Part shown: positions 7,248 to 41,707 of the stretch, piece by piece
Numbering within the stretch: the first letter of the stretch is position 1
Layout of the letters: the number at the start of each line of letters is the position of its first letter
Translations under genes and position numbers: made by a program
Notes under the pieces: generated by a model
What the model was told of the DNA's origin: nothing
Database searches by the model: none
Seen by the model: only the letters and a program-made list of their open reading frames with translations
DNA from: Verrucomicrobiota bacterium
Lineage (GTDB): Bacteria; Verrucomicrobiota; Verrucomicrobiia; Limisphaerales; JADLHS01
NCBI GenBank assembly: GCA_025457745.1
Contig: JALOTT010000013.1
Location: 1 to 41,707 of the forward strand
DNA length: 41,707 nucleotides
Direction: 5' to 3'

Positions 7248-9548
7248 ATGAAAAAAACGTTATTCTGTTTGGCCTTGATGGCGGCTTCCTGCCTGCAAAA
7301 TTTTGCGGCTCCGGCTGAAACTTCCGCGCAACGCGACGCCCGCATGGCGTGGTGGCGCGAGGGGCGGTTCGGAATGTTCATCCACTACGGCCCGGTCGCA
7401 CTGACCGGCAAGGAGATCAGTTGGTCGCGGGCGAATTCGAACACCAACTGCCCGAACAAAGGCCCGACGCCGGTTGCGGTTTACGACAACCTTTACAAGG
7501 AATTCAACCCGACTAATTTCAATGCCGCCGACTGGACCGGGATCGCCAAGGCTGCGGGAATGAAATATGTCGTGCTCACGGCAAAACATTGCGACGGCTT
7601 CCTGTTGTGGGACTCCAAGGTGGACGCCTACAATATCACCGCCACGCCGTTCCAGCGCGACCTGTGCGCGGAATTGGCGCGGGCGGTGCGGGCCGATGGG
7701 TTGAAGCTCGGCTGGTATTTTTCGCCGATGGACTGGCGCGACCCGGATTTTCGCACGGAGCGGAACGGCGCGTTCATTACGCGGATGCAGGGGCAACTGC
7801 GCGAATTGCTGGGCCACTACGGCAAGGTTGATCTGCTGTGGTTCGACCACGATGACCGCGAAGCCGTCTATGACCAGACCAATACCTATGCGCTGGTGAA
7901 AAAATTGCAGCCGCAAATCGTCATTAATAACCGGCTCGACTTGGGCGTCAACCAGGGCAATCGGCTCATGCTCCATCCCCATGCCGATTACTACACGCCC
8001 GAGCAGCAAATCGGTGGTTACGACGACCAGCGCCCGTGGGAAACCTGTATGACGCTCGGTACGCAATGGTCCTGGAAGCCGAACGACAAAATCAAATCGG
8101 CTGCCGAAGTCGTCCGCATTCTCGCCCGCACCGTCGGCGGCGATGGCAACCTGCTTCTGAACGTCGGCCCGATGCCTGATGGCCGCATCGAGCCGCGTCA
8201 GGTGGAAGTCCTCCAAAAGGTCGGCGCGTGGATGGGTGTGAATGGCGAGAGCATTTACGGCACGCGCGGCGGCCCGTGGAAACCGACGGAACAGCTCACC
8301 AGCACGCGCAAGAGCGACGTGGTTTATGTTCATGTCTTGAAGGCAGACGGCGACACGCTGGAACTGCCCGCACTGCCGCGCAACATCAAATCCGCTTCCG
8401 TCCTTGGGGGCGGCGAAATCAAAACCGAAACCAACGCCGGAAAATTCATCCTGCATCTGCCGGCGAAACGCGGTCCGCTGGCCATGGTCATCAAATTGGA
8501 ACTGGACGGCTCGGCGATGAACATTCCCGCAATCACTTTGCCCGAGATTAAGCCAGCCCAGTCTAGTCCCAAAAATGTTCCTATGGTGAGCGCGGCCCGC
8601 GTGAAGCAGTTGCAGGATTTGCAATGGGGCATGTTCATCTGCTGGAGCTTCAGCACGTTCTCCGGCAAGGAGTGGACGCCCGGCGTCAAGGACGTGAGCT
8701 TCTTCAAGCCGACCGGCTGCGACACCGACCAGTGGGTCAAGACCGCCAAGGAAGCCGGCATGGGCTACATCCTGTTTCTCACCAAACACCACGACGGCTT
8801 CTGTCTCTGGGATACCCAGACGACGGATCGCAAGGTGACGAAGAGTCCGCTGGGCCGCGACGTGCTGGCCGACTTGAAAAAATCCTGCGAGAAGCACGGC
8901 CTCAAAATCGCGCTCTATTTTTCCGAGGGCGAGTGGCGTCAACCGGGCGGGCTTGAAGATCCGGCCACTCCCGCGCCGAAGAAGCGCAACCAGGGCGGCT
9001 CAAACGCGGAGCTTAAAAAAGCGCAACTCAAGGAACTGCTCACCCAATACGGCCCGATCGAATACATCTGGTTCGATCACGCCATCGGTGACGGCGGCCT
9101 CAGCCACGCGGAGACCCTCGCATTCTGCAAATCGCTCCAGCCGGACTGCTTCATCGGCTTCAATCACGGCGACCAGACGGGCGCGGACATCCGGCTCGGC
9201 GAGATGGGCCGGCCCGGGCCGCTCAACGATCACGCCGCTGCCGGGCCGCACATGAAAGACGCGCCGAGCCAGAGCTACCGGCTCGCGGAGTTCACCTACC
9301 CGATCCTACCGAAGCACAAAGGCGGCGCGAACTGGTTCTATTCGCTGCCGGAGCACGACCAACTCTGCCTACCAGCGGAGAAGCTTTATGCGGATTATCT
9401 CGGCGCGGTAAAACACGGCAACCTCTTTGCGCTTGATGTCGGCCCGGATTACGCGGGGAAGCTCCGGGACATTGACGTGAAGACGCTGCGCCAGGTCGGC
9501 GAAATGATCCGCAACGGACAGAAAACCGCCCCACCCACCAAACCGTGA
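7248..9548 (+). CDS. secreted protein with two tandem GH29 alpha-L-fucosidase catalytic domains
   Basis: Signal peptide MKKTLFCLALMAASC. Domain 1: WWREGRFGMFIHYG, KYVVLTAKHCDGFLLWDS, VDLLWFDHD. Domain 2: LQWGMFICWSF, GYILFLTKHHDGFCLWDT, IEYIWFDHA. Confidence 0.8.
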   Translation: MKKTLFCLALMAASCLQNFAAPAETSAQRDARMAWWREGRFGMFIHYGPVALTGKEISWSRANSNTNCPNKGPTPVAVYDNLYKEFNPTNFNAADWTGIAKAAGMKYVVLTAKHCDGFLLWDSKVDAYNITATPFQRDLCAELARAVRADGLKLGWYFSPMDWRDPDFRTERNGAFITRMQGQLRELLGHYGKVDLLWFDHDDREAVYDQTNTYALVKKLQPQIVINNRLDLGVNQGNRLMLHPHADYYTPEQQIGGYDDQRPWETCMTLGTQWSWKPNDKIKSAAEVVRILARTVGGDGNLLLNVGPMPDGRIEPRQVEVLQKVGAWMGVNGESIYGTRGGPWKPTEQLTSTRKSDVVYVHVLKADGDTLELPALPRNIKSASVLGGGEIKTETNAGKFILHLPAKRGPLAMVIKLELDGSAMNIPAITLPEIKPAQSSPKNVPMVSAARVKQLQDLQWGMFICWSFSTFSGKEWTPGVKDVSFFKPTGCDTDQWVKTAKEAGMGYILFLTKHHDGFCLWDTQTTDRKVTKSPLGRDVLADLKKSCEKHGLKIALYFSEGEWRQPGGLEDPATPAPKKRNQGGSNAELKKAQLKELLTQYGPIEYIWFDHAIGDGGLSHAETLAFCKSLQPDCFIGFNHGDQTGADIRLGEMGRPGPLNDHAAAGPHMKDAPSQSYRLAEFTYPILPKHKGGANWFYSLPEHDQLCLPAEKLYADYLGAVKHGNLFALDVGPDYAGKLRDIDVKTLRQVGEMIRNGQKTAPPTKP

Positions 9549-12132: not shown

Positions 12133-12546
12133 ATGATAACTCAAGCCAACGGAAACGCGGTCCTCGAAAAAACGCGCGAATTGTGTGAGGCCATCGTGGC
12201 CGCGCCAAAAATGATTTCCATCCGCGAGCGCATCAGCACGTTCATGGCGGACAATAAATCGCGCACGCAGTATGAATCGTTGATGACCAAAGGCCAGGCT
12301 TTGCAGGAAAAACAACAGGGTTCCCTGCCGTTGGCCGGCGAGGAAGTTTCCGAGTTCGAGCGCCTGCGCGAGGCATTGCTCGCCAATCCCGTGGCAACCG
12401 GCTTCCTCGACGCACAGCAGGAACTGCACGAGGTTCAGCAATCCATCCACAAGCATATCTCCAAGACGCTTGAACTGGGTCGCGTGCCCGCGCCTGAAGA
12501 GATCGAGGAAGGTTCGTGCGGCCACGGTTGCGATTGCCATCACTGA
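12133..12546 (+). CDS. YlbF/YmcA-family (DUF964-like) helical protein with a C-terminal Cys/His tail
   Basis: Helical 137-aa protein with a pattern recalled from the YlbF family (..FM.d...r..ye.l..k...LqekQ..G.....eE...fe.l......np....f..Aq). Ends in SCGHGCDCHH. Confidence 0.55.
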   Translation: MITQANGNAVLEKTRELCEAIVAAPKMISIRERISTFMADNKSRTQYESLMTKGQALQEKQQGSLPLAGEEVSEFERLREALLANPVATGFLDAQQELHEVQQSIHKHISKTLELGRVPAPEEIEEGSCGHGCDCHH

Positions 12547-12576
12547 ACCGACGGTCACGACCAACCCCTGCCGGCG

Positions 12577-13434
12577 ATGCCGCGTTCTCCGCAAAAGCAT
12601 CGGTTGCTCGAAGGCGCGCGCGTTTATCTCTCCGGGCCGATGGATTTCGTGGCGTCGCGCGCGGTGGAAAAACAATCCGGCTGGCGCAATCGCGTAAGCC
12701 AGTTTCTCCAGGAGATGGGCGTGACGGTGTTCGATCCCTGGTTCAAACCCGACGTGCGCGGCCTCCACGAATATGGCCGCGAGGACGTGAAGAGCGGCGA
12801 GCGCATCCGCAAACGCTGGACTTACGCGAGCGGCAAAAAAGGTGCGCAGGCGCGGTCGTGGTGCGCGCGGCAGTTCTGGGAGACGTTGCACATTGACCTG
12901 CGGATGGTGGATACCAGCGACTTTTCGATTTCATATTGCCCGACGAACATCTACAGCGTGGGCACGCCGCACGAAATCATCATGGCCACGCTCCAGCACA
13001 AGCCGGTGCTCTTTGTCAGCCCGCCGATTGTGTTCCCGACGCTGCACGAATTGCGCGAACGCTTAAAGAATGACCCGGCCGGCAGCGAAATGTTGAAACG
13101 ATTGGAGGCTGAGATTCCCATCAAGGAAAACCCGCGGGGTATTCCGAGCCTGTGGTACATCCCGCTGGTTGGCGGCGAGAATTTCTTCGACGGTTTTGGG
13201 TTCGCTCCGTATCGGAAACGGTTTGGCTGGCGGACGGAGATCGCCATTGACCGGCACGAAAAGCGATTCCCGCCGCAACGTCCGCTGCTGCCGTTCGTGG
13301 AAAAACTGAACACGCGGCTGCCAAAGAAATGGGACCGCAAGCTCAACCGCTTCGTGCCCGACGACGATTGGCTGCTGTGGGATTTCAACGCGAAGCAGAT
13401 TCGCGGCAAACACGTCGAGTCGGTGCGCAAGTAA
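12577..13434 (+). CDS. hypothetical protein, possibly with a nucleoside 2-deoxyribosyltransferase-like fold
   Basis: VYLSGPMDF near the N-terminus and later SVGTPHEIIMATLQHKPVLFV resemble the NDT-like Rossmannoid pattern. The C-terminal half is unassigned. Confidence 0.45.
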   Translation: MPRSPQKHRLLEGARVYLSGPMDFVASRAVEKQSGWRNRVSQFLQEMGVTVFDPWFKPDVRGLHEYGREDVKSGERIRKRWTYASGKKGAQARSWCARQFWETLHIDLRMVDTSDFSISYCPTNIYSVGTPHEIIMATLQHKPVLFVSPPIVFPTLHELRERLKNDPAGSEMLKRLEAEIPIKENPRGIPSLWYIPLVGGENFFDGFGFAPYRKRFGWRTEIAIDRHEKRFPPQRPLLPFVEKLNTRLPKKWDRKLNRFVPDDDWLLWDFNAKQIRGKHVESVRK

Positions 13435-20214: not shown

Positions 20215-20421
20215 GATTCCGTAGTCCCGTCAGGGACGACCGACAATAGCCCGCGGTTTCAACCTTGGGTTGCGGATGTAATGATGACCAAGCCCCACAG
20301 GGGCGAAAGAATCCGTTCGTTGACACAACAAGATTCTTCCGTCCCTCACGGGACTCGTTCCAGCTCCGCGCAAATACCCAGCGATAAATCGCTGGGCTGT
20401 TTTCAAGCGTCCTTGTGGGAC
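20215..20421. repeat. composite multi-hairpin repeat element (GTCCC-N4-GGGAC modules plus a CCCAGCGAT-AAA-TCGCTGGG hairpin)
   Basis: Hairpins at 20224-20237, 20341-20354, 20377-20396 and 20409-20421. Six-frame peptides of the type VVPSGTTDNSPRFQPWV / LGCFQASLWD are characteristic of a dispersed repeat, not of a gene. Confidence 0.55.
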
Positions 20422-21695
20422 TTGGATTCATGGTTTGATTTGATGCGCTCCAACAAATCCTCCGCCGGTTCGTTGGTGGGGTCTTGGGGGACGAGTTGGC
20501 CGGCGAAGGCGCGGGCGAGGAGGGACGGCGTGAGCTTCTCCACTTGCCCGCGCGCCTTGGCCAACCGCACCTCAAGCTGGTCGGCCAGCGCAAACAATCC
20601 CTCCACTCGCCGCACGATTTCCAGTTGCTCGGGGAGCGGAGGCACTGGAACAGGGATGGTGTTCATGTTTGCCTGATTCAACTTTGGCTGCGCTGTGCCC
20701 GACACATACGGCGCGAGATCAATCGAGTTGATGTAGGCGGCGACGTAGGCGTTTGGGAACGAGTGCTTGCACCTCAGAACATGGGCGTGGTTGTTGACCC
20801 AAATCCGACCCTTCGCGAGAAATGCGATGGGTGTCGAACGTGAGAGCAAGTTCGCGCCGTCCTCGCCAATCAGCACGAACTCACCTTCGTGTGTGAAGCC
20901 GTCAATGGAATCGATAACTCCTGACGCTCCGTAATATGGGAACGCACCCTTTCGTGTTTCACGCAGCTTCGATGAAATGGGAACACGTTTGCCATCGAGA
21001 TTCTCAACGTAATCGCCTAGCGCGCACCAAGCCCAGCCGGATGGCAAGTCATCGGCAGGCTTGGCGGCTGCGATGACTTCGCTTGCTGGCTGAACATTTG
21101 AACTGTCCTCCCGCCAATCGGCGGTAAGGCGGCCGGAGCAGGCGGCGGCGAGGACGGATTGGCGAAAGCGTTTGAGCAGGACGGGCATCTTCGCCAGTCG
21201 CTGCTGGCTGGCGTCCACTTTGCCCAACAGCGTCTCCAGCTTCGCCACAATCCGCCGCTGCTCGGCGAGCGGAGCGAGCGGGACTTCAAGATTCCAGAAA
21301 ACTTCTGGGTCAACGTGAGGGATGCCCGTGCCGCGAGTGTTGTTGTTGAGAGTTTGAAACTGGCTGGCGATAAAGTGACGCAGATAACTCGACTCCACTT
21401 GTCGCGCCGTCAGCGCCATGATGGTTGAGCCAATCGCTCCTGTGATACCACCACCAATCCAGCCGCTTCGCGCACCGTCCCAAACGACGAACAAATCGTC
21501 TTTGGCGGCGAGCCTCGATGATTTCACTTCCGCAAACTGCCGAACTGCCTTCTTTTCGATTGCGTGGATGTCGAGGTATGGAACGAATCCATCGGCTGGA
21601 CTGTCGCGCAGGACAGCGGGCTTCTTTCCTTTCTTCGCAGCGACGACTTCCTGCAATCGCGCAAAAGCCCACCTATTCGGAAGCTCGTCGCTCAT
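20403..21695 (-). CDS. hsdS: type I restriction-modification specificity subunit HsdS
   Basis: Two target-recognition halves, each followed by a conserved helical region (LPEQRRIVAKLETLL... and LPEQLEIVRRVEGLFALAD...). Start taken at the MSDELPNRW ATG (21695); the upstream part of the ORF is Arg-rich noise. Confidence 0.85.
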   Translation of the reverse strand: MSDELPNRWAFARLQEVVAAKKGKKPAVLRDSPADGFVPYLDIHAIEKKAVRQFAEVKSSRLAAKDDLFVVWDGARSGWIGGGITGAIGSTIMALTARQVESSYLRHFIASQFQTLNNNTRGTGIPHVDPEVFWNLEVPLAPLAEQRRIVAKLETLLGKVDASQQRLAKMPVLLKRFRQSVLAAACSGRLTADWREDSSNVQPASEVIAAAKPADDLPSGWAWCALGDYVENLDGKRVPISSKLRETRKGAFPYYGASGVIDSIDGFTHEGEFVLIGEDGANLLSRSTPIAFLAKGRIWVNNHAHVLRCKHSFPNAYVAAYINSIDLAPYVSGTAQPKLNQANMNTIPVPVPPLPEQLEIVRRVEGLFALADQLEVRLAKARGQVEKLTPSLLARAFAGQLVPQDPTNEPAEDLLERIKSNHESKSHKDA

Positions 21696-38300: not shown

Positions 38301-38380
38301 TGGCGGAGAGAGGGGGATTCGAACCCCCGGTAGGGCTTTAGGCCCTACAACGGTTTAGCAAACCTGCTTACATGCTCTCC
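38301..38380 (-). pseudogene. tRNA-Ser(GCT)-derived relic lacking a D-arm; probable att-site remnant
   Basis: The 3' 64 nt are canonical: anticodon loop TTGCTAA, long variable arm GTAGGGCC-TAAA-GCCCTAC, T arm GGGGG-TTCGAAT-CCCCC, acceptor TCTCTCC-G-CCA. A 5' GGAGAG is present, but only about 9 nt separate it from the anticodon stem. Confidence 0.7.
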
Positions 38381-38415
38381 GCACCATTGATTTTACAGTA
38401 TTATCTAAATAGGCT

Positions 38416-38445
38416 TTGACATTTGACCAACGATTTGCCCATAAT
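38416..38445 (+). promoter_or_regulatory. sigma70-like promoter candidate for the integrase gene
   Basis: TTGACA (38416-38421), 18-nt spacer, CATAAT (38440-38445). The integrase ATG lies at 38452, so the leader would be very short or absent. Confidence 0.35.
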
Positions 38446-38451
38446 GCAGGC

Positions 38452-39726
38452 ATGACAATAAGTGCAACCAAGACCGAAGGCAAATCGGTCAAATCCCGCA
38501 AAGGCAAACGCAATCGCGCCCCAGCCAGCAAGGAACGGTTTCATATCAATCACTTCGTCAACCCATCCGGCGAAGCTGTTTTCCGCGTCGCCGGTTACAA
38601 GCCGGACGGTACACGAGTCCGCGAGAATTGGCAGACCGAGGAGGAGGCTGTCGGGCGCAAAGCCGAACTGGACATCGAAGCCGCCAACATCAAGACCGCC
38701 ACGGCCACCCGGCTCAAAGCAACTCGCCTGACCGACGACCAGATTCGTGAGGCCGAAGCCGCTTACACCAAACTCGACGGCAAGCCCTTGCTCGCAATCC
38801 TCGCCTGCGGCCTCGCCAATTACCGCGACACGCTCCGCAAGATCACCGTCGAAGCAGCCTACGATAAGTTCATCGCCGAAAAAGAGAAACAGAACAAACG
38901 CCCGGACACGCTCCGCAACTTGCGCGGTCGGGTTGGCATGTTCAAAAAGCTTTACCCCGAAAAACTCGTTTCCGACATCACGCAGCAGACTTGCTCCGAC
39001 TTCATCTTCCGCGACGGAACTTCGCCCCGCAACCAGGTCAACGACCGCCTCGCCGTCAGCAACTTTTTCGCGTGGGCCGTCCGCCGCGAATACGCCGCCG
39101 TCAACCCGATGGCGAAGGTTGACCGCCCCGAAGTGGACGACACCGAACCGCAAATCCTCGCGCTGGCGGATTGCCGCCGCCTGCTGGCATCCGCCCGCGA
39201 CTACAAAGACGGCTTGCTCCTGCCCTACGTCGCGCTTGGCCTGTTCGCCGGGCTGCGCCCCGCCGAACTGTCCCGGCTGACTTGGAACAAGATAGACCTC
39301 GACGATAGCACCGTCACCCTTGACGGCAGCATGGCCAAGACCCGCCAGCGCCGGATCGTCAAGCTGTCGAAAAACGCCGTCGCTTGGCTCAACCCCTACG
39401 CCGTAGAGCGCCCGCCGTTCACCAGCGCAAACTTCCAACGCCACTTCGCCAGAGTAAAAAACGCCGCCGGGTTCAACGGCAAAGAAGGCGAGAAGGGCTT
39501 GCGGCCCTGGGTGCCGGATTACATGCGGCACACGGCCATCAGCCACCACTTCGCCCACCACAAGCACGAGGGCGAAACCGCGAGTTGGGCCGGCAACTCC
39601 CCGAACGTCATCCACAAACACTACAAGGCGCTCGTCAAGGAAGCCGAAGCCAAAGAGTTTTGGGAAATCACGCCGGAAACCGTCAAAGGCGAAATCACGA
39701 AGCTCCCCACCAAAGCCGCCGCCTGA
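38452..39726 (+). CDS. int: tyrosine recombinase / phage-type integrase
   Basis: Catalytic-domain pattern: GLRPAELSRLTW (Arg I), MRHTAISHH (H-x-x-R), NVIHKHYKA (catalytic Tyr). N-terminal Arm/SAM-like domain. Sits next to the tRNA relic. Confidence 0.88.
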   Translation: MTISATKTEGKSVKSRKGKRNRAPASKERFHINHFVNPSGEAVFRVAGYKPDGTRVRENWQTEEEAVGRKAELDIEAANIKTATATRLKATRLTDDQIREAEAAYTKLDGKPLLAILACGLANYRDTLRKITVEAAYDKFIAEKEKQNKRPDTLRNLRGRVGMFKKLYPEKLVSDITQQTCSDFIFRDGTSPRNQVNDRLAVSNFFAWAVRREYAAVNPMAKVDRPEVDDTEPQILALADCRRLLASARDYKDGLLLPYVALGLFAGLRPAELSRLTWNKIDLDDSTVTLDGSMAKTRQRRIVKLSKNAVAWLNPYAVERPPFTSANFQRHFARVKNAAGFNGKEGEKGLRPWVPDYMRHTAISHHFAHHKHEGETASWAGNSPNVIHKHYKALVKEAEAKEFWEITPETVKGEITKLPTKAAA

Positions 39727-39753: not shown

Positions 39754-40326
39754 CTAAACGTCCTTCCCGCAGCAATGCTTAAACTTCTTACCGCTTCCAC
39801 ACGCACATTTATCATTGCGGGCTTGTTTCGGGGCCGAATGTATCGGTTGCGGTTTTACGAAATCAATGCGTTCGGTTGAAGGGCAACGAAACGAGAAGCA
39901 TGTTTTACCGTCTTTGTGGGTTACCGCAAAATCGCCTACGCCAATGATGTCCATCCCGATTAAAAGATGGGTATCTTGAGCCATATCGCCTTTTGTGACG
40001 CGCACATTAGAGCACCGAACCCCATTGGGAAGAATTATGTTAACAAAATACACCTCGGAATTTCTGCTGCCATTTCCGGTATGAACTATTGCCATTCCGA
40101 TTGGCTTTAGTCCGCAGGCATCCACAACCTTTTGCGAAATAACCGAATTGGTTGCGCCGGTATCCCAAATCGCATCGAATTGGACTTGTTGTGGGTGGGG
40201 AGAGGTCGAATTAGGATCAAACGCAGCCGACACATGGGCTGCCGTTTTCAAGACTGAAAGGCGACCGTCAGCCGATAATGTAAAACTCTGCGACCGAATT
40301 GTAGGCGGACTAGGCGAAGGCGACAC
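39754..40326 (-). CDS. retropepsin-like (clan AA) aspartic protease fused to a C-terminal SEC-C metal-binding motif
   Basis: Active-site motif AIWDTGATNSVIS, flap/dimerisation-like LLIGMDIIG, C-terminal CACGSGKKFKHCCG. GTG start overlaps the upstream ORF by 17 nt. AT-rich compared with its surroundings. Confidence 0.7.
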   Translation of the reverse strand: MSPSPSPPTIRSQSFTLSADGRLSVLKTAAHVSAAFDPNSTSPHPQQVQFDAIWDTGATNSVISQKVVDACGLKPIGMAIVHTGNGSRNSEVYFVNIILPNGVRCSNVRVTKGDMAQDTHLLIGMDIIGVGDFAVTHKDGKTCFSFRCPSTERIDFVKPQPIHSAPKQARNDKCACGSGKKFKHCCGKDV

Positions 40327-40567
40327 GGGAATGGTAGGTCTGCGTGTAGCCAGCGCTTCCGGGTTCGCATTTCTGGACTAAAAAAGTCCCAAGCCGGTGA
40401 CTCTTTACAGTTTCTTGGATTGCCTGGACTTCGGAATCGTATGAGCCAATGACTTTTTGGTCTTTGATCACAACATGCTTCCCACCAAATTTTTCTACCA
40501 ATTCGTTTTGGTGTTCCAGGTAATAATTAAATTCTGTTTCGAGCGGATTAGCCATAATCGTTTCCAT
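40310..40567 (-). CDS. small hypothetical protein (85 aa), DUF5678-like by eye; upstream partner of the protease
   Basis: FNYYLEHQNELVEKFGGKHVVIKDQKVIGSYDSEVQAIQ resembles small 'GKWVAI.dg.V' proteins. Same strand as the protease ORF and overlapping it. Confidence 0.5.
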   Translation of the reverse strand: METIMANPLETEFNYYLEHQNELVEKFGGKHVVIKDQKVIGSYDSEVQAIQETVKSHRLGTFLVQKCEPGSAGYTQTYHSRVAFA

Positions 40568-40702
40568 CCACGAAAAGAGTAGTGGAATAGCATGATTCAG
40601 TCAATACATCTGTTTATCTTGATGAATTGATATTGCAACTTTAATCAAGCAGGCCAACGAATTACTGCGTACGTAGAACGGGCCGGGTTTCCATCTCCAG
40701 CG

Positions 40703-40906
40703 CTACCGCTGAATCACGGCCACCCGAAAGCGGTCCAGCCACCCGGCGAGATCAGAATGACGATACCTGATTACCTTGCCGGTAATCCTCAGATGCGGCA
40801 CACCCCGCTTTCTTCGCCATAACCGCAACGTGCGGGGCGTAATTCCCAGGAATCTTGCCGCCTCGATTTCAGTCAGCAAAGTTTGACCGTCCAAGTAAGT
40901 ATTCAT
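40703..40906 (-). CDS. AlpA/excisionase-family helix-turn-helix DNA-binding protein
   Basis: 67 aa. LLTEIEAARFLGITPRTLRLWRRKRGVPHLRITGKVIRYRHSDLAGWLD matches the HTH_17/MerR-type excisionase pattern. The rest of the 110-aa ORF upstream of this ATG is Gly/Ser noise. Confidence 0.7.
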   Translation of the reverse strand: MNTYLDGQTLLTEIEAARFLGITPRTLRLWRRKRGVPHLRITGKVIRYRHSDLAGWLDRFRVAVIQR

Positions 40907-40967
40907 CCGTGTTTCCCCTTTCAGTTTTGTATTTTCTACTTTCTGCTTTCCTTCCCACCCTCCACCC

Positions 40968-41234
40968 TTGCGCCCGATGCAACCGTCGCCCCAGCCGTAC
41001 CCGCAGCCCCGGACGCTCGACGAACTGCTCGCCAACGCCGAGCACTACGCCGACTTCTGCATGCGCAACTCGGGCCGCGTCACGCCCGCGCTTTTCCTCA
41101 TCGGGCCGGACGGCCAGGGCATGGTCTGTCCCGAAAGCCTGGCGGACGACCGCGCCAAAGACGACTTCGCCAATAATGCGCGCCTCGTGTGCATCGCCGC
41201 GCGCGTCTGCCTTGGCAGGTGTTTGCCGAGTTGA
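40968..41234 (+). pseudogene. island-borne hypothetical gene, apparently 3'-truncated near 41195-41215
   Basis: TLDELLANAEHYADFCMRNSGRVTPALFLIGPDGQGMVCPESLADDRAKDDFANNARLVCIA looks protein-like. The last ~12 codons (RVCLGRCLPS) look like read-through into unrelated DNA. Confidence 0.4.
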
Positions 41235-41707
41235 TGCAGCGCGCGTTGCGGCCGCTGGCGCAAGCCCGTCGGCATTGGAAGCTGGTGGAAACCCGGTCGC
41301 CGCGGCGTCGCGGCCAGCCGTTGCCGGCGCTGCCGTTTGTGTTTCACGGTCCGCGCCATTCCCGTCCGGCCGTGGACAAGCTGCCGCTGGCCGACATCAT
41401 CGCCGTCAACCTCGATCACTACCGGCTCGATGCCGATTACAAGCATGGGATTCATTTCACCGCGTTGCCGACGGCGTGGGTGAGCGGCTTCGACAAGAAT
41501 GCCTCGCTGCGGATTGGCAGCAGCACGGCCTGGGTGACGGAAACGGCGGGTGCGACGGCGGGTTTTCTGGAGTTCACCGGTCAAGGGCTGACGACTTTTG
41601 AGCGGGCGATGGATCGGGATGAACGCCTGATGGCGGTCCTGGGTTCGCGCCTGCTGGCCGAACAGAAAAAGGTCGGCGAGACGGCGGAGACGATTGAACT
41701 GCGGCAA
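41177..41707 (+). pseudogene. internal fragment of a phage portal-like protein (DUF4055-type), lacking its N-terminal half and open to the window end
   Basis: PAVDKLPLADIIAVNLDHYRLDADYKHGIHFTALPTAWVSGFD...LRIGSSTAWV...LEFTGQGLTTFERAMDRDERLMAVLGSRLLAEQKKVGETAETIELRQ matches the recalled portal pattern (PPL.DL..lN.aHYr.sAD.e.g.Hf.g.PT.v.sG ... Ma.lGArll). This frame is not in the supplied ORF track because it has no stop. Confidence 0.5.

Follow-up and report, generated by a model that had tools for sequence, protein, structure and literature searches.

Bacterial retropepsin-like aspartic proteases are few and poorly understood, and to our knowledge no characterised retropepsin-like enzyme belongs to a two-gene mobile cassette. 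The described enzymes include APRc of Rickettsia conorii, RimB of Pseudomonas and Rlo of P. aeruginosa; RimB is reported to act on ribosomal protein S6 by trimming (PMC11957791), and the characterised bacterial enzymes are presented there as involving other protein factors, by activation or within a cascade. PADLOC lists PDC-M08, an untested phage-defence candidate that is likewise a two-gene system and whose B component is a small retropepsin-like aspartyl-protease protein; no mention of PDC-M08 was found in the literature. Lit is a protease-based abortive-infection effector, and we know of no toxin that is an aspartic protease. Here, a stretch of 41,707 nucleotides (nt) from a Verrucomicrobiota bacterium (assembly GCA_025457745.1, contig JALOTT010000013.1), referred to as the window, was analysed for a cassette of two overlapping minus-strand genes, which encode a small DUF5678-family protein (gene 1, the small partner) and a retropepsin-like protease with a C-terminal SEC-C motif (gene 2). 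The two genes form a module that is abundant and conserved to an unusual degree, yet uncharacterised, and its enzyme belongs to a class so far unseen in such systems. We tentatively read it as an autonomous toxin–antitoxin or abortive-infection-like module in which the protease would be the effector and the partner would silence it through its tail, a reading to which we give slightly less than an even chance.

The features of the cassette, in window coordinates, are as follows:

40310–40567, minus strand: gene 1, small acidic protein of the DUF5678 family (open reading frame of 85 amino acids, ATG start)
39754–40326, minus strand: gene 2, retropepsin-like (clan AA) aspartic protease (open reading frame of 190 amino acids, GTG start), laid out as core, variable linker and SEC-C tail (from Pfam and the structural model)
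40310–40326, minus strand: overlap of the gene 1 stop and the gene 2 start, 17 nt (from the open reading frame coordinates)
40150–40164, minus strand: catalytic motif D55-T-G-A-T59, read from the sequence, with residues invariant in homologues
39940–39966, minus strand: L121-L-I-G-M-D-I-I-G129, the hydrophobic-hydrophobic-Gly motif of clan AA peptidases, read from the sequence
39763–39819, minus strand: SEC-C zinc-knuckle tail of the protease, residues 170–188 (Pfam)
40568–40651, minus strand: upstream segment of 84 nt that travels with the genes, bounded by the end of DNA identity to the closest relative at 40651

The cassette as a whole (39754–40651, 898 bp) has a G+C fraction (GC) of 0.461, against 0.602 for the whole window. 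An earlier, sequence-only reading of this DNA had described an AT-rich two-gene cassette with a 17-nt overlap of minus-strand open reading frames, a clan AA protease core with the motifs DTGAT and LLIGMDIIG, a C-terminal SEC-C zinc motif and an 85-amino acid DUF5678-like partner; each of these descriptions was borne out, the last by a narrow margin. The overlap depends on where gene 2 begins. In the database call for the contig (P0001), gene 2 starts 25 codons later and gives a protein of 165 amino acids. Homologues show little or no variation at residues F15, T16 and L26, GTG 40326 is the sole in-frame start upstream of them, and the NCBI annotation of the closest relative's protease is the 190-amino acid form. 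The 190-amino acid form is therefore the correct one and the gene overlap is real, implying translational coupling of the two genes. Gene 1 may start at its second ATG (M5, 40555) instead of the first, which would give 81 amino acids and is the start used by most homologues in the alignment. Chance open reading frames are excluded by the hundreds of homologues of each protein and by their conserved adjacency.

Gene 2 exceeded the Pfam gathering cut-offs of both gag-asp_proteas (40.6 bits, cut-off 28.2) and Asp_protease_2 (36.3 bits, cut-off 24.3). It does not belong to the NCBIfam subfamily TIGR02281, for which it scored only 20.8 against a cut-off of 57.95, and the Pfam scan gave no sign of a membrane or secretion signal. 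The catalytic Asp motif of clan AA is present as I-W-D55-T-G-A-T. Residues D55, T56 and A58, as well as L122, G124 and M125, are invariant in an alignment of 117 homologues, which argues that the protease is under selection to stay active. The AlphaFold 2 model of the protease (predicted local distance difference test (pLDDT) 91.9) has the retropepsin fold, with L122-I-G124 conserved in the alignment. Its top Foldseek match was APRc (5c9f, E 9e-7), and further matches were the proteases of human immunodeficiency virus 1 (HIV-1), feline immunodeficiency virus (FIV) and equine infectious anaemia virus (EIAV), as well as eukaryotic Ddi1, all of them, APRc included, at a probability of 1.00. Single-domain clan AA enzymes all act as homodimers. 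Because there is a single DTG per chain, gene 2 should likewise act as a homodimer with one active site. The protease is basic, with an isoelectric point of 9.0, and the small partner is acidic (5.7).

The tail of the protease matched SEC-C (PF02810) over residues 170–188 with 31.4 bits (gathering cut-off 20.4). The motif itself, read from the sequence as CACGSGKKFKHCCG (residues 174–187), has a complete set of four ligands, C174-x-C176-x8-C185-C186, of which C174, C176 and C185 are invariant in the protease alignment; a profile of the tail matched the metal-binding domains of SecA and YchJ in the PDB (E 2e-9 to 4e-7). With a charge of +5.9, the tail accounts for the whole net positive charge of the protease, the core being at about zero. 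The SEC-C tail announced by the sequence-only reading is thus present here, but it is not obligatory in the family: among the tails of 124 distinct complete proteases from the fetched loci, 81 are SEC-C, 29 are polybasic and rich in Lys/Arg, and 14 are of other or degenerate type. The polybasic tails, described as unstructured, occur chiefly in viral relatives. Positive charge is the common denominator of SEC-C and polybasic tails, which points to tethering to a polyanion. As roughly a quarter of the relatives swap SEC-C for a Lys/Arg tail, the role of SEC-C in this protease family is suggested to be electrostatic tethering and not specifically SecB docking. The metal-binding domain of SecA is reported to bind SecB and ribosomes (bioRxiv 10.1101/613315); by analogy with SecA, binding of metal, SecB or ribosomes by the tail of the protease is putative. 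The interchangeability of SEC-C and polybasic tails offers a testable approach to the roles of SEC-C outside SecA.

The small partner passed the DUF5678 profile (PF18929) only marginally, at 24.0 bits against a cut-off of 23.2 and over model positions 1–34 of 49; the same profile was matched by 111 of 117 of its relatives (E ≤ 0.01). The structural model (pLDDT 80) comprises two N-terminal helices, a hairpin, a helix and a strand, with a folded alpha/beta core (residues 8–66) and a low-confidence C-terminal tail (residues 67–85, ending in CEPGSAGYTQTYHSRVAFA). In alignments, this tail of the last ~19 residues is among the most conserved parts of the family (...QKCEPGxxxYTQTYHSRVAF). The protein is conserved along its whole length and is the most conserved part of the system, with mean column identities of 61–73% against 47–51% for the protease. 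No helix-turn-helix (HTH), ribbon-helix-helix or AbrB domain was found in it by Pfam scan; a conserved inverted repeat is present upstream. Sequence and fold searches of the PDB with the small protein gave no significant match, and the deaminase matches returned by the fold search (template modelling (TM) score about 0.3) were discarded as noise. Its best structural relatives, found in BFVD, were DUF5678-annotated proteins of Pandoraviruses (TM score 0.69), giant viruses of amoebae and an unexpected place for this domain. One relative (P0242) carries the small protein in tandem duplicate within a single chain of 181 amino acids, and another (P0326) has an N-terminal extension of HicB-like look; these could be real fusions or artefacts of gene calling.

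Both proteins belong to large families. Word-indexed protein searches gave 1,188 matches to the protease and 766 to the small protein, and when 1.84 billion representatives of clusters at 50% identity were searched exhaustively by profile, 2,019 proved to be related to the small protein at E ≤ 1e-3 and 712 at E ≤ 1e-10. With few exceptions, these relatives are stand-alone proteins of ~80 amino acids. The best 120 protease clusters are all 112–208 amino acids in length, and nearly all have both domains on record. The union of protease and SEC-C, which the sequence-only reading had found unfamiliar, is therefore widespread, and it already carries generic labels at JGI and NCBI ("SEC-C motif/gag-polyprotein putative aspartyl protease", "retroviral-like aspartic protease family protein"). 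Family members are spread over Verrucomicrobiota, Nitrospirota, Chloroflexota, Planctomycetota, Bacteroidota, Alphaproteobacteria and many prophages. A profile scan of genome contigs with the full-length protease alignment was unusable as a taxonomic census, as it was swamped by the generic SEC-C pattern: its only true member was a Muribaculaceae locus (L001), and L008, L015 and L023 were of YchJ type, with SEC-C at both termini around an NTF2-like domain, and unrelated to the protease family.

Pairing of the two genes was sampled from either side. Metagenomic loci were picked by the small gene, which gave 72 distinct loci, 56 of them with enough downstream DNA; an intact protease lay directly (0–30 nt) downstream in 51 of the 56. 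The protease was broken in the remaining five, being split or without its start in L117 and L133, cut short in L111, interrupted by an insertion sequence in L122 and reduced to a remnant in L141. At L122 (1974–3441), the insertion has an IS3-like organisation with two overlapping transposase open reading frames and interrupts the protease after ~70 codons; the small gene is intact. Sampling by the protease core in viral contigs (IMG/VR) gave 203 relatives in 72 distinct loci, and a full-length small gene was found directly upstream in 70 of these. Among relatives, the spacing between the genes lies between -29 and +23 nt and is most often +9. An intact protease beside a decayed small gene was not seen in the sampled loci. 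Fusions of the small protein to the protease were likewise absent among the best 150 partner relatives, which included only the duplicate P0242 and N-terminally extended gene calls. Among the results that the sequence-only reading had named as counting against it were a pair not conserved in other genomes and a protease motif below profile thresholds; the pair proved to be conserved, and the protease passed and has the retropepsin fold.

Comparison with the closest relative showed the limits of the unit. The two share 81% DNA identity over a segment that starts exactly at the protease stop and finishes 84 nt upstream of the small gene (39754–40651). Their flanks have nothing in common, with rhamnose-pathway and pilT-like genes in the closest relative and integrase and excisionase-like genes in the window. 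The cluster of the closest relative contains a protein from a Verrucomicrobiota metagenome-assembled genome, and the window sequence is present in wetland metagenomes. Across 127 distinct contexts, the commonest neighbour family, a phage tail protein, occurs in only nine; integrases occur in eight and amidases in five, and other contexts include leuB/leuD, panB, an IS1595 transposase and Mu-like prophage genes. The GC of the cassette is lower than that of its flanks in 77 of 87 loci. Relatives on viral contigs (IMG/VR) often lie near contig ends, beside integrase, endolysin or tail genes. On these comparisons the cassette is taken to be an autonomous, horizontally mobile unit, with the integrase only its vehicle. 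The integrase island of the sequence-only reading was thus right in that an integrase adjoins the pair; the integrase is no part of the system, because the 81%-identical cassette sits elsewhere between ordinary chromosomal genes.

The 84-nt upstream region is probably the cassette's own putative promoter and operator, with TTGACT as a possible −35 box. The hexamer TTGACT (40599–40604) is invariant in an alignment of three diverged cassettes, and just upstream of it lies an imperfect inverted repeat, CTTGATGAA / TTAATCAAG (40618–40626 / 40641–40649, minus strand). A scan for consensus sigma-70 promoters and terminators around the cassette found nothing, and in the promoter read by hand (TTGACT-17-TACTCT) the −10 box has only three of six consensus matches. 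In a sediment metatranscriptome (run X4), one contig of 163 nt matches 40304–40465, the end of the small gene and the start of the protease, at ≥99% identity. It is a weak sign of transcription of the cassette or of a near-identical copy, a single contig of this length being too little to prove co-transcription.

The neighbouring features in the window are:

38416–39726, plus strand: tyrosine integrase gene, convergent with the pair (Phage_integrase, phrog_1, E 3.9e-32), context only
38304–38381, minus strand: tRNA-Ser(GCU)-like pseudo-tRNA without a D arm, read from the sequence, adjoining the integrase
40703–41035, minus strand: HTH_17/excisionase-like gene (HTH_17 39.5 bits; phrog_66, excisionase/regulator)
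40968–41234: open reading frame of 88 amino acids with no family assigned, before the portal fragment
41215–41707, plus strand: portal-protein gene fragment without its first ~200 codons (phrog_145 positions 210–367 of 493; DUF4055)

The stop codons of integrase and protease are 27 nt apart. In the pseudo-tRNA, the acceptor, anticodon, long variable and T arms are present and the D arm is replaced by ~9 nt; the match to the Rfam tRNA clan is sub-threshold (31 bits), and ARAGORN made no call. The pseudo-tRNA is probably the attachment-site junction of the integrated element; the intact tRNA would lie beyond the end of the window. As listed, the excisionase-like gene has a TTG start that gives a Gly-rich leader of 43 amino acids, and its true start is likely M44 (40906). 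Since the portal gene has lost its first ~200 codons, the carrier element is read as a decayed or rearranged prophage, in which the pair is cargo at the integrase end. Elsewhere in the window, a full-length Acido-Lenti-1 small RNA (20377–20422, plus strand; 43.3 against a gathering cut-off of 37) fits a Verrucomicrobiota, Lentisphaerae or Acidobacteria host.

Two further loci of the family were noted. In "bacterium BMS3Abin10" (L169), two copies of the pair lie 4 kb apart (7761–8573 and 12255–13091), in an island that also has an integrase fragment, an NTP_transf_2 protein and an FRG-domain protein. In Leptospira phage LinZ_10 (KF114880, L253), a divergent pair lies beside the portal gene at 2142–2384 and about 2390–2930; the partner has 80 amino acids (small-protein profile A4, E 6e-12), and the protease, with DTGAM and a basic tail, is an open reading frame unannotated in the GenBank record. 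Leptospira LE1-like phages are thereby cultured-host carriers of a divergent pair.

In the toxin–antitoxin or abortive-infection-like module that we favour, gene 1 would be translated first and in tight coupling with gene 2, and a dimer of the protease would be the effector. The basic C-terminal appendage would tether the protease to a polyanion of the cell. By analogy with the metal-binding domain of SecA this could be the ribosome or RNA; otherwise it could be the acidic lipids of the membrane. The conserved tail of the partner (YTQTYHSRVAF) would keep the protease silent, whether by occupying the cleft like a pseudo-substrate or by obstructing the terminal-strand sheet of the dimer interface. 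Once the partner was lost or displaced, for instance when a phage infects or the element disappears, the protease would cut host proteins, and growth would stop. This scheme draws on the mobile coupled operon, the intact active site, the basic tail, the acidic partner with its exposed conserved peptide, carriage by prophages and occasional decay of the protease, with no decayed partner seen beside an intact protease; from these we infer physical binding, inhibition, toxicity, trigger and target. The distant match of many family proteases to PDC-M08B points the same way. The toxin–antitoxin or defence idea of the sequence-only reading, in which the small protein could inhibit the protease or be its substrate, is plausible and consistent with the mobility, tight coupling, variable context and prophage-cargo position of the pair.

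A more specific version of the favoured module is doubtful when taken as a whole. Under it, the cassette would be the first toxin–antitoxin or abortive-infection family with a retropepsin-like effector, delivered by SEC-C or polybasic tails to the ribosome or another polyanion and plugged at its cleft or dimer interface by the C-terminal peptide of a DUF5678 protein, and it would be part of an ancient, widespread module that includes PDC-M08 and the pair of the Leptospira LE1-like phages. Should the favoured reading itself be right, aspartic proteases would be a new enzymatic class among toxin–antitoxin and phage-defence effectors, and DUF5678 would gain a function. The conserved tail of the partner may be a peptide by which a retropepsin-type active site or dimer interface is inhibited in nature.

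Several results weigh against the toxin–antitoxin or defence reading. Conservation is higher in the partner than in the enzyme, whereas most type II pairs show the opposite. Neither Pfam nor PDB fold searches recognise in the partner a DNA-binding domain for autoregulation of the kind that a classical type II antitoxin carries. Two divergent proteases (L216 and L222), both without a basic tail, have no partner at all. Five cases make up the surplus of broken proteases over broken partners, and some of these are possibly assembly errors. With the small protein as query, tblastn found no copy in PLSDB (72,556 plasmids) and none in 50,697 GenBank phages, both collections being biased to cultured hosts. 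Finally, the link to a listed defence candidate is thin for the window pair: its protease matched PDC-M08B with an E of only 6.4e-4 (17.8 bits), and its small protein gave no match to PDC-M08A at E ≤ 1.

The first of these results leads to the alternative that fares best, one that we nevertheless regard as unlikely. The pair would still be a conflict module, and the small protein would be a substrate, pro-effector, activator or specificity adaptor of the protease, cleavage or binding of its tail switching on either the small protein or the enzyme. That the small protein is conserved from end to end, and more so than anything else in the system, would suit an effector or a factor in contact with a conserved host target, and the difference in column identity (61–73% against 47–51%) agrees with this account better than with a classical antitoxin. 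An acidic protein of 81 amino acids without an enzymatic or membrane-active signature is, on the other hand, an unlikely effector. The tail of the partner, extended and exposed in the model, resembles a protease substrate, and the characterised bacterial retropepsin-like enzymes work with activating or cascade factors, according to PMC11957791. The position of the small gene ahead of the protease, in tight coupling with it, is the usual order of antitoxin and toxin, and no fusion of the two proteins occurs among the best 150 relatives. Where the protease is broken and the small gene intact, the locus would be harmless under this account as well.

Regulatory proteolysis outside any conflict, with the protease acting on the translation apparatus or another complex in the way that RimB acts on S6 and the cassette spreading for its adaptive benefit, is improbable. 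Action of the retropepsin-like RimB on a ribosomal protein (PMC11957791) and binding of ribosomes by SEC-C domains (10.1101/613315) are documented, and very high conservation of the partner across phyla would suit such a role. The pair is at times found among housekeeping genes (leuB/leuD, panB), but among the 127 contexts there is no linkage to ribosomal or translation genes. Patchiness, atypical GC, variable contexts, 203 relatives on viral contigs, a two-copy locus and protease pseudogenes are instead selfish or defence-like.

A role in the phage life cycle, either as a lysogeny switch of ImmA/ImmR type, the small protein being cut by the protease, or as a virion maturation protease with its partner, is very improbable, for although the window pair lies between integrase and excisionase-like genes and pairs on viral contigs are often near integrase, lysis or tail genes, the same type of cassette also occurs without phage genes nearby, its position in phages is variable, it is intact in the window where the prophage has decayed (truncated portal gene), and the small protein is acidic and without HTH or other DNA-binding domain, the lysogeny switch being rejected on the first and last of these grounds.

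Literature searches (DUF5678, retropepsin with SEC-C, PDC-M08, aspartyl protease with antitoxin, COG5550/COG3577) found no paper on this pair or on the fusion of protease and SEC-C; those on retropepsin with SEC-C and on aspartyl protease with antitoxin found no characterised enzyme in a two-gene mobile cassette, and the one on DUF5678 found a single, irrelevant mention. Compared with PDC-M08, the protease family as a whole is closer than the window pair, with 82 of 117 family proteases matching PDC-M08B at E ≤ 0.01 (best 2.6e-7); PDC-M08A is touched by one of 38 divergent small partners (E 0.02). The PDC-M08B models span 101–128 positions without the tail of gene 2, which matches other PADLOC models. 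As judged by these profiles, the window pair falls outside PDC-M08, which would be at best a distant sister family.

Gene 2 shares its fold with APRc, RimB and Rlo, and sequence identity to APRc, HIV-1 protease and Ddi1 is only 11–20%. Its family differs from APRc, RimB and Rlo in a conserved N-terminal two-strand extension and a basic SEC-C or polybasic tail, as well as in an obligatory small upstream partner and a distribution over mobile elements and prophages. The ligand pattern of the tail, CxCx8C[CH], is identical to that in the SEC-C domains of SecA, YecA and YchJ, with similar basic residues, whereas the carrier is a protease here and a translocase ATPase or NTF2-like domain in those proteins. 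Relative to the DUF5678 model, the clade of the window adds two N-terminal helices and the conserved C-terminal tail. With type II toxin–antitoxin modules, the cassette shares a small, tightly coupled or overlapping operon with an acidic small protein encoded first and a basic enzyme second, and it has the adjacent, co-directional and conserved pair in a mobile and variable context by which such modules are recognised. Mobility, patchiness, occasional multiple copies and frequent carriage as prophage cargo are likewise common to both.

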